29,228 nt of DNA, from positions 1 to 29,228 of the IMG/VR virus record IMGVR_UViG_3300034109_000116; one strand, written 5' to 3'. This DNA is from a virus. Lineage: Duplodnaviria; Caudoviricetes. A model generated the notes under the pieces. It saw only the letters and a program-made list of their open reading frames with translations, searched no databases and had not been told where the DNA came from. This document shows, one piece after another, positions 16,113-28,455 of this stretch (its first letter is position 1; every line of letters begins with the position of its first letter). The translations under genes were made by a program, and so were the position numbers.

Positions 16113-16164
16113 AGCTGTAAACTTTAAATATTTATGTAGATCAGAGAATACAAGTTCTCAATAA

Positions 16165-16172
16165 TAATATAC
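16165..16172 (-). promoter_or_regulatory. Candidate late-promoter element GTATATTA
   Basis: The same octamer is at 22990-22997; both copies lie in long intergenic gaps, this one just downstream of a terminator where re-initiation would be needed. Confidence 0.4.
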
Positions 16173-16192
16173 TAATTTTTAGGGACATGTCC

Positions 16193-16228
16193 AAAAACAA
16201 AAAGGGAGGGACGTGTGTCCTCTCCCTT
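16193..16228 (-). terminator. Rho-independent terminator ending the head-gene transcript
   Basis: Minus strand AAGGGAG-A-GGAC ACAC GTCC-CTCCCTT followed by TTTGTTTTT, 22 nt after the stop at 16251. Confidence 0.85.
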
Positions 16229-16250
16229 AGTGTTTATAAACTAACTATCC

Positions 16251-18763: not shown

Positions 18764-18774
18764 ATTTTATAATG

Positions 18775-18808
18775 ACCTGGATGCTGTTCTTATAGTAAGC
18801 ATCCAGGT
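18775..18808. other. Perfect 11-bp inverted repeat (intergenic stem-loop)
   Basis: ACCTGGATGCT (18775-18785), 12-nt loop, AGCATCCAGGT (18798-18808); no U-tract on the coding strand. Confidence 0.75.
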
Positions 18809-18815
18809 ACTGTTT

Positions 18816-19832
18816 TTATTGATTCCAATACTTCTCAACCTTCTTAGTTAAGTCTACCAAAATCTCTTCGTTCAAAGGATTTTTCAAGTATTCTACACAA
18901 TCAGAAGGAGTTCGTCCTAACATTGTTGTAGTTTCCATGTGGTAGATAAACCCATCAGCTTTAGTTGCAATAAACTTAAAATATGATGAATCTTTAACAA
19001 TTGCTCTAATCTTTAAAGTTTCCATATCAAGTGTAGCAGCATCTAAGAATCTCTGAGCGGTTTTACGCTTATCTTTTTCTACAAGATCCCCATTGATGTA
19101 TTTATCCATGTTGTCATAGATAATATCATTAGGAGTAGACTTCTTATACTGAGCACTGTTTGCATCTAGCACTTTTGCTACATACAATAACTTATTCTGA
19201 TTCTTATCAAACAACTTCTGAAGTTCGGAAAGAGCTTTATTACGAAGCTTCTTAACTTCTGTTTGCACTGATGCAGTTTCTTCAAGCTTGTCCAAATAAA
19301 ACTTTGGAGGAACTGGCATTCTGCGTGCTTCTTCCAAGCTTTTAGCTACAATTGAAAATCCTCCTGCGTCAATAGCATATAATCTAATTAAATCATATGG
19401 ATCTTTATCAGGTTCTAGATAAGTAGGTTCGTTGCCGCATCTAATTTTAATCTTATCCCAAAACTCTGAATTATCAGGTTTCATTAATTTAATTTTGTTC
19501 CAGAACTGCTCATCAGTAGGTTCTACAACATTGGCAGCTAGTTCTCTTTCTAACTGAGCTACTACTACTCTAATCTGTTTGATTTTAGCTTCTTGATCTT
19601 CAGCAGGCAAATTTTTAACTTCAGGTGAAAACTCATTCAATCCTGTAATATATCGTTTGATACCGTTAATCTCAAGACAAGCTAGCTGTTCCTCATGAAA
19701 AGCTCCATCAAAAAGACTTAATCCATACTTCTGTAGTCCCATGTTATCTACCATTGGATCAAAGAATGGTCTAATGGCAATAGTGGACTTTTTGTTTTGT
19801 GGATACTTCTCCACGATTGTTACTCCGCTCAT
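18816..19832 (-). CDS. Conserved hypothetical protein following the capsid gene (crAss-like capsid module)
   Basis: 338 aa charged, helical ORF in the position of the conserved uncharacterised gene downstream of the capsid gene in crAss-like phages; function not readable from sequence. Confidence 0.6.
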   Translation of the reverse strand: MSGVTIVEKYPQNKKSTIAIRPFFDPMVDNMGLQKYGLSLFDGAFHEEQLACLEINGIKRYITGLNEFSPEVKNLPAEDQEAKIKQIRVVVAQLERELAANVVEPTDEQFWNKIKLMKPDNSEFWDKIKIRCGNEPTYLEPDKDPYDLIRLYAIDAGGFSIVAKSLEEARRMPVPPKFYLDKLEETASVQTEVKKLRNKALSELQKLFDKNQNKLLYVAKVLDANSAQYKKSTPNDIIYDNMDKYINGDLVEKDKRKTAQRFLDAATLDMETLKIRAIVKDSSYFKFIATKADGFIYHMETTTMLGRTPSDCVEYLKNPLNEEILVDLTKKVEKYWNQ

Positions 19833-19864
19833 GTTTGGTTTATTTGGTTTTTATTACAACTAGC

Positions 19865-20024
19865 GGTCGCATTTTGCGACCTCACGTTTAGAACCTATTG
19901 AGAGTTGCGAGCTCCCCATGTGATCACCATGGTACGCGTACAATAGGTGGCCCGCAGAGACTATCTACGGGGAGGCATTGGCATATCTTCAGCAGGGAGA
20001 CCTAAATCCCCCTGCATTAGATAT
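19865..20024 (-). ncRNA. Candidate structured RNA (four consecutive domains) between the capsid gene and the next gene
   Basis: GC-rich island almost fully paired: H1 19983-20024, H2 19951-19971, three-way junction 19893-19948, H4 19865-19881. Three non-Watson-Crick positions are G-U on the minus strand and A-C on the plus strand. Confidence 0.7.
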
Positions 20025-20031
20025 TATTTTA

Positions 20032-21651
20032 TTAGAATGATCCTCCAGTAACTGGGTTTCTCATGACAATCTTCAACACCTTGGTTGGGTCTTTAACCCA
20101 GATAGCTGGCATAGTTTGAGTCATGAATACACGGTAACCGTTGAACTGTCCAGAAGACTGGAAGCCTTGAGTACGTCCCATGTAATCCATAGTACCGTTC
20201 TGATAGAACCACTTCAATTGATTATCCCAAGAAAGCTTCAACAAGAAGATGTTGTCGTTAGTATTCTCAGTAATATCAAAGATAATGAAATTGTAAGAAG
20301 ACAATGGGAAACCATCAATAATTGGGTTCTCAATATCGTTAGTATGAATGTTATCAAACGCTGGGTTCAACACAAACTTAACGTTAGCCAAGAAAGGAAT
20401 AACGTACTGAGTATATGCAAATCCAAAGTTTAGATCCATTCCTTTACCAGTGATAGCACCTACTTCAGAAGCATTGATTACCAAGCCAGAGTTGATAGCC
20501 TCTTTCTTAATAGCTTCGTTAACAAGCTTCATACCACCAAGTCCAGTTTGTACAACCAATTGACGCTTAGGATCTGGACCTTGGAATTCAACTTTACCGT
20601 TGAAGAAGTTAAAGATCTCAGACTTAAACAAGTCAAGATTGAATGAACCTTTGTTGTAAATACGCTTGTAAGAGTTATCAAGCTGCTTCCAAAGACCTAC
20701 AGATAGACGGATATCATCAGGACCATCCTGCTTAACTTTACCACCCTGACCCCACATTAGGTAGGTCTCAATGTCATTAGCAATTTTGGTCAAATGAGCC
20801 GCTTCCATAGTAGTCAAGAATGTACGAGTCAACTGACCAGACTGGTAAGCTTTCTTTACATAATCTTTACCCATTTTAGAAGCCATGTCTTCTAGAGAAG
20901 AAACAGAAGGATCTGAGCTCTTGTCAAAGTTTCTCCAAAGTTCAATAACTGGAACTGTGCCATCAGCTTTCATTCCACCTTTCATCATCAAGTCAGCTCT
21001 AGAGCTTACAGAATAATGAACGTGAGCTTCAGCTCCACCTACATAGTTATAGAATTCACGGAATCCAGCGTTGATATTACCGATGTCAGAGAATCTTTCA
21101 CCATACTCACCACGAGCAGAACCTTTACGGAACACCTTAGTACCAACTTTAAGATACTTGTTATCCAAGAACTTAGCATTGTCATTGTTTACCAACTGAA
21201 CAGTGTAGATAAAACCGTCACCAGCAGGGATGATATCATCTGCAGTGATGTACATTTCAACACCATTGTACTTGTCATAAGTGATAATATCACCGTGACC
21301 AAAAGAACGCTTGTTCAATTTGATCTTGAAGGACTGACCATCAATACCTTTAGTAGCATTGCCTGATTCAATATCTTCAGTTACATAAGGAAGATCCTGG
21401 GTAACAGGAATCTGCCACTTGTACTCACCACGTGCGTTATCTACAGAGATAACGTTCTTACCGCCAAAGCTAGACATTTGGTACAAAGGCATTTCTACTT
21501 TTTGTGCCATTGCCCACAAATCTACTGGACCAAGGTCTGTAGGTTCTGCTGACTTAAGCAAGTTTGAAAGGTGGTAGCTGTCTACGTGTGAGCTAGTCTG
21601 ATAGCTGGTATCCCGTAGAAATATACCATTGTTCAAAACCGGAGTTGCCAT
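20032..21651 (-). CDS. Major capsid protein (crAss-like, HK97 fold expected)
   Basis: 539 aa; position after portal and scaffold; IETYLMWG...GLWKQL backbone-helix-like pattern, VVQTG.GG motif, strong high-expression codon bias (AAC, TAC, TTC, ATC). Confidence 0.8.
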   Translation of the reverse strand: MATPVLNNGIFLRDTSYQTSSHVDSYHLSNLLKSAEPTDLGPVDLWAMAQKVEMPLYQMSSFGGKNVISVDNARGEYKWQIPVTQDLPYVTEDIESGNATKGIDGQSFKIKLNKRSFGHGDIITYDKYNGVEMYITADDIIPAGDGFIYTVQLVNNDNAKFLDNKYLKVGTKVFRKGSARGEYGERFSDIGNINAGFREFYNYVGGAEAHVHYSVSSRADLMMKGGMKADGTVPVIELWRNFDKSSDPSVSSLEDMASKMGKDYVKKAYQSGQLTRTFLTTMEAAHLTKIANDIETYLMWGQGGKVKQDGPDDIRLSVGLWKQLDNSYKRIYNKGSFNLDLFKSEIFNFFNGKVEFQGPDPKRQLVVQTGLGGMKLVNEAIKKEAINSGLVINASEVGAITGKGMDLNFGFAYTQYVIPFLANVKFVLNPAFDNIHTNDIENPIIDGFPLSSYNFIIFDITENTNDNIFLLKLSWDNQLKWFYQNGTMDYMGRTQGFQSSGQFNGYRVFMTQTMPAIWVKDPTKVLKIVMRNPVTGGSF

Positions 21652-28316: not shown

Positions 28317-28345
28317 TATTTTTCCATTAGTATTAGGAACATTTG

Positions 28346-28455
28346 CTGTAGAGGATGGAGTCGAACCACCAAGTGGACTTTAGGGATAATTCCTTTATCA
28401 GTTGTTCCACACCCACGAGACAGGTGGGTACGTCTGCCAATTTCGTCACTCTACA
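28346..28455 (-). tRNA. Atypical tRNA-Asp(GUC)-like gene with 41-nt variable region
   Basis: Minus strand folds as acceptor TGTAGAG/CTCTACA plus G73; D-arm ACG-AAATTGGCAGA-CGT; anticodon arm CCCAC-CTGTCTC-GTGGG (GTC at 28421-28419); T-arm GGTGG-TTCGACT-CCATC; no encoded CCA. Confidence 0.85.

Follow-up and report, generated by a model that had tools for sequence, protein, structure and literature searches.

What is the structured RNA that follows the major capsid gene in this phage, and does it form one molecule or several? The window, i.e. the whole stretch of DNA analyzed here, is a 29-kb virus record (29,228 nucleotides) in which all long genes, among them those encoding PhoH, the large terminase, the portal, the major capsid protein and tail fibres, are located on the minus strand. 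The candidate element sits in the 3' spacer of the major capsid gene (Table 1), and the Pfam Crass_capsid match of the upstream gene agrees with an earlier sequence-only reading of this DNA, which had placed the element right after a major capsid gene. The nearest annotated phages show less than 30% identity to the capsid protein, uncultured relatives number in the hundreds, and RNA runs containing part of the stretch are mainly labeled freshwater or aquatic. The phage itself is counted among a large, uncultured group of crAss-like freshwater phages. The 338-aa protein encoded by the next gene did not yield any Pfam, PHROG or PDB match and matches only unnamed viral clusters. Based on the phage group, whose hosts are presumably Bacteroidota, and on a tRNA-like gene that also occurs on Cytophagales chromosomes, we infer a Bacteroidota host. 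This tRNA-like gene (28345-28455, minus strand) is located between the PhoH and large terminase genes and was not called by ARAGORN or Rfam. It contains a 7-bp acceptor, a class-II-type D arm, a canonical T loop, a G73-C74 tail, the loop CUGUCUC with a pyrimidine at position 37 and a long variable region, and its folding z is only -0.78. Six viral matches, some with longer inserts, and at least 120 matches among genome contigs were found; the 80 genome matches listed are all from Bacteroidota, mostly Cytophagales. The gene is thus a host clue as well as an unexplained RNA in its own right.

Table 1 Features of the capsid gene region, with coordinates in the window.
Feature	Coordinates	Strand	Description	Basis
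Major capsid protein gene	20032..21651	-	Crassvirales-like phage, 539 aa	Pfam Crass_capsid E 3.8e-31; PHROG major head protein
H1	19983..20024	-	Long hairpin with internal loop, without U-tract; swapped for other hairpins in relatives	Fold and relatives
H2	19951..19971	-	Hairpin after C-rich tract; frequent but optional 5' neighbor of the core	Fold and relatives
Core	19891..19948	-	Predicted mini-tRNA-like pseudoknotted element, 58 nt, +1 (19948) to C74 (19891)	Covariation and model
P1	19893..19948	-	Acceptor-like stem, 8 bp, 19948-19941 with 19900-19893, stacked on P3	Two-sided changes at 8/8 pairs
Mini D arm	19933..19940	-	Closing pair U19940-A19933; loop holds A19939 and triplet GCG 19937-19935	Alignment
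P2	19916..19932	-	Anticodon-position arm, 5 bp, 7-nt loop with palindromic center GAUC; optional in relatives	
P3	19901..19915	-	T-arm position, 4 bp, 7-nt U-turn-type loop CUCGCAA	P3 pairs share 13/13 and 11/11 tree changes
3' tail	19889..19892	-	U73-C74-U75-A76, tRNA register	C74 in 50/53; real tRNA genes alike
H4	19865..19881	-	Hairpin ahead of next gene	Fold and relatives
Next gene	18816..19832	-	Conserved phage protein, 338 aa, no assigned function	Sequence searches

The four hairpin elements described earlier, namely H1, H2, a junction (19948-19893) and H4, are all present on the minus strand. Folding of the 160 nt yields -62 kcal/mol with a z of -4.13, and 0 of 200 shuffles folded as well. 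As had been noticed, the 199-nt spacer is the longest of the gaps between listed minus-strand genes, followed by one of 148 nt. The element does not contain the GC stem followed by a U-tract that marks an intrinsic terminator, no terminator-like site was called in the spacer and the core tail reads UCUA, in line with the initial view that the missing U-tract argues against a simple terminator. Elsewhere in the window, the minus-strand spacer 16113-16250 contains a GC-rich hairpin followed by a T-run, by eye the clearest coding-strand terminator-like site, which the terminator scan called on the plus strand only. The proposed Infernal search against Rfam likewise left the element without a known family: there was no match at gathering score in the window, none at E<=10 on 19800-20060 and none at E<=1 in 12 related loci, and ARAGORN called no tRNA in the element.

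The idea of a single RNA of ~160 nt did not survive comparison with relatives. There, insertions of up to ~1.8 kb separate H1, H2, the core and H4, and short ORFs, longer genes and other structured motifs often interrupt the stretches on either side of the junction, toward H1 or toward H4, one of them a likely homing endonuclease gene recognized by eye in L014. One 160-nt RNA was rejected on these grounds, and the four elements are therefore best described as separable modules. The junction starts 55-1852 nt past the capsid stop codon and ends 25-819 nt ahead of the next conserved gene; since the latter spacing varies so widely, the suggested cis-regulator of downstream genes is unlikely in the form of a fixed-distance regulator of the next gene. 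H1, H2 and H4 vary freely in sequence and the conserved unit is the junction. In 62 of 66 loci, a hairpin is found no more than 45 nt upstream of the core, and in 44 of 66 one of -4 kcal/mol or below follows within ~50 nt downstream. H1 is likely a 3'-protective stem of the capsid message and H4 likely a 5'-protective stem of the downstream message.

Several further elements populate these spacers. In the window, the 338-aa gene is followed by a hairpin module (18767-18812, minus strand) whose lead-in is AACAGUA, whose loop has 12 nt and whose tail is UCAUU; the same module takes the place of H1 directly behind the capsid gene in some relatives, for example L013, L018, L020 and L024. Ten loci (L003, L009, L010, L011, L014, L016, L017, L019, L044, L098) have a second covarying motif inserted between H1 and the core, which spans ~65 nt with several stems and is closed by ACUCAG/CUGAGU; it had no Rfam match among the loci scanned. 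A third motif, a hairpin whose loop contains the palindrome UCAUGA, is found in L012, L016, L023 and L042, whose cores are without P2. Very lysine-rich short ORFs, not present in this window, are located between H1 and the core in L016, L018, L020, L024, L025, L032, L038, L041 and others; read by eye, they possibly encode nucleic-acid-binding capsid cargo. L014/L015 and L052 carry a long ORF directly past the capsid stop codon that looks homing-endonuclease-like by eye.

Capsid-gene loci were gathered by protein search together with a motif pattern, and 126 were kept after removing duplicates and cut capsid genes. The core could be identified in 74 of these 126 non-redundant loci. The automatic parse had returned 79 cores, of which five (L047, L049, L067, L080, L181) were removed as false, and six loci (L012, L014, L017, L024, L140, L187) were re-parsed by hand. 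Among the 52 loci without a core call, 38 have short spacers and almost all of these represent one sister clade; L040 is truncated inside the motif, and the L067 contig contains the motif ~2.7 kb downstream. The H1 of L047 and L067 (3633-3668 in both) consists of a plain 12-bp hairpin that shares the CUCGUAA loop and the UUCU tail with the core but has no junction, and is possibly an ancestor or remnant of the core. All 57 matches of the first pattern have the capsid gene upstream. In a later, overlapping set of 56 pattern matches this is true for 52, with only the next gene found for one and neither gene within the flank for three. Model R2 identified a single strong match in the window (77.8 bits, against 15.5 for the runner-up) and one copy in each of five long core-bearing phage records, with no extra copies in any of these. 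Five Bacteroidota-type genomes, with 150 candidates scored in each, did not contain a copy above E 0.8, and the sole genome-contig match (L137) is a 5-kb phage-like contig carrying the capsid gene.

Judged by alignment of these relatives, the core is a conserved, covarying structured element. In an alignment of 57 rows, chosen by a structural descriptor that favors nested helices, 94.1% of 1059 cells pair and two-sided changes are found at 19 of 20 pairs; 0 of 500 shuffles reach the observed pairing and slid structures reach 33-42%. The covariation check proposed earlier thus turned out positive for the P1, P2 and P3 helices, and also for a feature that had been overlooked, a 3-bp pseudoknot between the mini D arm triplet and CGC (19909-19907) in the P3 loop. 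The parse score left this triplet out, and all three positions are still paired in 51 of 62 unique strings when the parse ignores it; L012, L014 and L017, where the triplet position was chosen by eye, are therefore not independent tests of the pseudoknot. Of 861 column pairs, its third pair (T3:loop34) has the highest corrected mutual information; by parsimony on the capsid tree, the two positions of this pair share 14 of 15 changes and those of the middle pair 5 of 5. The combinations seen are GCA/UGC, GCG/CGC, GCC/GGC, GUA/UAC and ACG/CGU, plus wobbles; the first motif pattern fixed one triplet, which inflates that state, not the changes. Among 53 variants, the three triplet-loop pairs are formed in 52, 53 and 52. 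The nested minimum-energy fold forms the triplet-loop pairs in place of the P3 helix.

Sequence is conserved at a CC/GG foot of P1 and at a near-invariant junction A (19939), present in 51 of 53 variants. The closing pair of the mini D arm, formed between the first junction base and the base two past the triplet, is found in 50 of 53. The junction is built differently in two subtypes. In a second subtype, the mini D arm is lengthened to a 3-bp stem with the triplet in a small loop kissing the P3 loop. Many relatives have a reduced P2 or none at all. Where it is present, the four central nucleotides of its loop are palindromic in 48 of 49 unique arms (GATC in 45, GGCC, GTAC and TTAA in one each), the three variants being multi-base changes that are still self-complementary.

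The several palindromes of the core, together with the GG-UUCU/UCUU foot shared by H1-type hairpins, could be read as DNA, that is, as a DNA-level element or as an unusual terminator or promoter for a phage polymerase. However, there is no U-tract, GATC is about as frequent in the window as expected (0.97), and G-U outnumber A-C combinations by 31 to 9, which favors RNA on the minus strand. A covarying pseudoknot combined with an excess of G-U on one strand argues for single-stranded RNA, and we consider action at the DNA level highly improbable.

The core shows the arm order of a tRNA. Its predicted fold consists of P1, the mini arm, a 5-bp arm with a 7-nt loop and a 4-bp arm with a 7-nt loop stacked on P1, with contact between the first and third loops, which would amount to a reduced cloverleaf. 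The tRNA geometry recognized from the sequence alone, 12 stackable base pairs arranged as 8+4 or 7+5, is well founded: the stack is 8+4 here and 7+5 in L016 and L052. The description as D-armless is imprecise: a mini D arm of 1-3 bp is present and carries the kissing triplet, and the dispensable arm is the one at the anticodon position, not the one at the D position. Using standard tRNA position numbering with the P3 loop numbered 54-60, comparison with the T-loop consensus gives G53-C61 in 43 of 53 variants, U55 in 52 and a purine at 57 in all 53. U54 (C in 32 of 53), C56 (variable) and A58 (C in 48 of 53) are missing, so the loop is indeed non-canonical, and its sequence is closer to that of an anticodon loop (Y32, U33, A37). 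The D arm has no G18-G19 and, with 1-3 bp and a variable triplet, falls short of the usual 3-4 bp. The anticodon-position arm, obligate in tRNAs and there carrying U33 and a purine at 37, is optional here, and its commonest loop, CUGAUCA, has C at 37. With neither Rfam nor ARAGORN calling a tRNA, and given the T loop and D arm, the core was rejected as a true tRNA; model R2, in turn, had no match in 31 tRNA-bearing loci.

The 3' end follows the tRNA pattern. The +1:72 pair is formed in 49 of 53 variants and is followed by N73-C74. Position 74 is C in 50 of 53 and shows 3 tree changes compared with 11 at position 73 and 19 at position 75; in the three exceptions, the stack is one base shorter and a C is found at about the same place past the stem. 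As a control, a C two bases after other hairpins of these spacers is found in 20 of 82 cases, and C makes up 16% of downstream bases. Position 75 is U or A, and position 76 is A in 44 of 52, A being common downstream in any case. The lack of CCA noted earlier is correct in that most loci encode only C74 and only L016 and L033, among the 53 variants, encode full CCA. It is no argument against a tRNA mimic, however, because most tRNA genes parsed from such phages and from a Bacteroidota genome likewise encode C74 alone. In G011, a freshwater Bacteroidota genome with 40 tRNA matches in all, C74 is found in 29 of 30 parses at 29 loci and full CCA in 10; in three phage records (G006, G007, G009), C74 is found in 14 of 15 parses and full CCA in none. 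The one non-C74 parse in each set looks like a false parse. The predominance of C74 over full CCA in these tRNA genes (L405-L452) is an observation in its own right, for which no description was found in the literature, the accessible part of PMC10275265 containing nothing on Bacteroidota tRNA 3' ends; the C74-only tail bears on how Bacteroidota finish tRNA 3' ends.

We hypothesize that the core mimics a tRNA and serves as a processing signal at which the late transcript is split, replacing the U-tract terminator of the sister clade, a proposal that we regard as having about an even chance of being correct. P1 and P3 would stack like acceptor and T arms, and the Watson-Crick kiss would take the place of the D-loop/T-loop elbow. 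RNase P would measure from this elbow and cut before 19948, and the host 3' pathway would trim to N73/C74 (19892/19891) and may complete CCA. Such tRNA-maturation cuts would separate the capsid message from the downstream message, leaving H1 and H2 to protect the 3' end created on the capsid mRNA and H4 to protect the 5' end created downstream. The clade would thus punctuate by processing and the sister clade by U-tract terminator. A run of at least five T after the first hairpin is found in 35 of 38 short motif-less spacers compared with 8 of the 66 motif-bearing loci in which a hairpin was called (8 further loci had none); as one clade is compared with its sister, this contrast amounts to a single independent comparison. 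The earlier suggestion of a processing signal or tRNA mimic coincides with our best reading, and the predicted tRNA-like fold is conserved, with processing itself remaining the putative part.

According to the accessible text of PMC4919913, the elbow is the point from which RNase P measures a fixed distance, a loop resembling the T loop is required whereas the D loop is dispensable, and tRNA-like RNAs that are not tRNAs are also cut. C74 pairs with the RNase P ribozyme, it is through this pair that activity is fully rescued, and precursors without CCA are cut by RNase P in vivo, as described in the available portion of PMC1874595. The known substrates named in the accessible part of PMC4919922 include t-elements, MALAT1/MEN-beta, polycistronic mRNAs and phage RNAs. 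On the other hand, in Bacillus RNase Z is blocked by 3'-CCA (PMC4919913 and PMC1874595, in the same accessible portions), which we counted against the processing proposal. Also against it, +1 is mostly A and not G, position -1 is able to pair with 73 in about half of the variants, and the leader after H2 is only 2 nt long in 22 of 66 loci, including this one. The P3 loop lacks the T-loop bases listed above, L187 has lost the pseudoknot, and the bare hairpin of L047 and L067 has the same loop and tail. The palindromic P2 loop is left unexplained by processing.

Should tRNA-style processing prove correct, a phage would have swapped a terminator for a tRNA-style punctuation of its capsid operon, a strategy best known from organelles and mammalian long RNAs. 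Because the canonical T loop has been dropped and a sequence-variable three-pair kiss is used instead, the core would offer a natural system for finding out which features of the elbow are required by RNase P. With a length of only 58 nt, natural compensatory variants and a predicted cut site, it could be tested in vitro without phage culture.

Assembled RNA data make transcription of the element plausible, although such contigs reveal neither ends nor levels. In 21 RNA runs, 13-32% of the words of a 701-nt stretch were found, shares that count only for the four runs, out of 24 listed and from four studies, that were placed as contigs and that mostly cover capsid coding sequence of relatives. 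A contig from run X2, belonging to a relative (19722-20175), covers the end of the capsid gene, the element and the next gene without a break. It therefore represents uncut RNA or DNA, which counts against processing, and may be precursor RNA or DNA. The end of a single contig from run X7, at 19939, falls within the core, 9-10 nt past the predicted 5' cut, and was counted neither way. The bridging contig would suit a pseudoknot that stays uncut in the mRNA, where it could block exonucleases or serve as a binding site for a phage protein, e.g. the capsid protein, that sets the ratio of capsid to downstream products. The strict 3' linkage to the capsid gene, the conserved CC/GG foot of P1, the near-invariant junction A and the non-canonical T loop would also fit such a role. 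The constant ~12-bp stack and the unpaired C that matches C74 of real tRNA genes would be left unexplained, however, and we consider an uncut pseudoknot rather unlikely.

The late transcript could also be split by the RNA itself if the core represented a new class of small self-cleaving ribozyme with the invariant A, U and C as catalytic residues. The compact pseudoknotted junction and its near-invariant unpaired bases would be in keeping with this, and self-cleaving ribozymes are known to cluster near particular gene classes, as reported in the accessible part of PMC5737381. Yet no covariance model of the self-cleaving ribozymes or riboswitches in Rfam 15 matched the window or the 12 related loci, the fold does not include the invariant C, which occupies tRNA position 74, and the junction is rebuilt in different ways in two subtypes. 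The core did not fit the HDV-like, twister, pistol or hammerhead topologies. Self-cleavage thus appears very unlikely.

The P2 palindrome draws attention to the RNA that processing would release. The same processing would be needed if selection acted on the RNA itself, with the mini-tRNA as an abundant late small RNA that serves in trans as a decoy for host proteins binding or cutting tRNAs, or as a head-assembly scaffold. It could possibly carry a CCA tail and dimerize via its palindromic loop. The near-constant self-complementarity of the P2 loop, with its multi-base variants, speaks for such a product, as do the hairpins with a 6-nt palindrome in their loop found just upstream in some P2-less lineages (L012, L016, L023, L042) and the two loci encoding full CCA; the position behind the capsid gene would presumably raise copy number. 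However, P2 is missing or reduced in many relatives, the element is absent from the sister clade, no free 58-nt RNA stood out among contigs, which show such RNA poorly, and the P3 loop triplet is variable (UGC, CGC, GGC, UAC, CGU) and paired. A decoy for one anticodon nuclease fits poorly because of this variation and pairing, and reading the P3 loop as an anticodon decoy or an aminoacyl-tRNA-synthetase operator was rejected for the same reasons. A released RNA as the selected product is unlikely in our estimate, if still worth considering. Both ideas could be combined: a mini-tRNA with a Watson-Crick elbow, cut by RNase P and the CCA pathway, would punctuate the operon and also accumulate as a self-dimerizing decoy titrating host tRNA-surveillance or anti-phage tRNA-targeting proteins, a scenario we view as rather improbable.

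In the phi29-type pRNA model, packaging RNAs form a ring on the portal. The core lies within the head operon, and both the triplet with its loop and the palindromic loop would be able to pair in trans, so that triplet-loop pairing between molecules could in principle build such a ring. The large terminase is present in this phage, though, and 3-bp contacts are short for a ring. Model R2 found no copy in any of five records from the sister clade, of which a single one reaches 90% completeness, and sister-clade capsid proteins are 81-85% identical. A packaging RNA, as proposed in the sequence-only reading, is therefore unlikely, and one of the phi29 type in particular is extremely so.

We conclude that the core is a real structured element without an Rfam family and a putative variant of tRNA-like processing elements rather than a tRNA. 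A literature search, mainly of open-access sources, did not find a description of it. The searchable supplements of Fremin et al. 2023 (PMC10690425), which reports 8495 candidate structured RNAs from IMG/VR, contain no match, and the element may be listed anonymously among these candidates.

Individual features of the core have parallels in several known systems. In the dicistrovirus IRES pseudoknot I, a U-turn loop pairs with a triplet in cis, and retroviral dimer-initiation loops have a self-complementary center; the core shares both properties. In contrast to the IRES, its triplet is located 5' of the loop and is followed by P2 and P3 and not by a reading frame, with 25-819 nt to the next gene. 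The Mu-gpT-DE motif is an RNA motif that, like the core, is located downstream of a phage head gene; the Rfam scans gave no match for the core. T4 species 1 RNA and P4 CI RNA are phage RNase P substrates and, like the proposed product of the core, non-coding RNAs matured by host tRNA enzymes, but they differ in host and gene context, their sequences having been compared via Rfam scans only. "Phage-induced regulatory RNAs" are also named among RNase P substrates in the accessible part of PMC4919922. The canonical tRNA (RF00005) shares with the core its arm order, 12-bp stack, 7-nt loops, G53-C61, U55, purine 57 and N73-C74. It is set apart by the length of the core of 56 nt to position 72, the D arm of 1-3 bp without GG, the absence of a variable loop and of U54, C56 and A58, and the mostly pyrimidine position 37. 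The closest parallels are mascRNA (MALAT1), menRNA (MEN-beta) and plant mitochondrial t-elements, which, as described in the accessible portions of PMC4919922 and PMC4919913, are likewise small tRNA-shaped units in longer transcripts with reduced arms, an acceptor/T-like stack and a proposed role in defining the ends of their neighbors. For the core, a tRNA-like shape within a longer transcript is a covariation-based prediction. It differs from these elements in being located in a phage late operon, in its 8+4 stack and non-canonical T loop, and in having an elbow predicted to consist of three covarying Watson-Crick pairs together with an optional palindromic arm.
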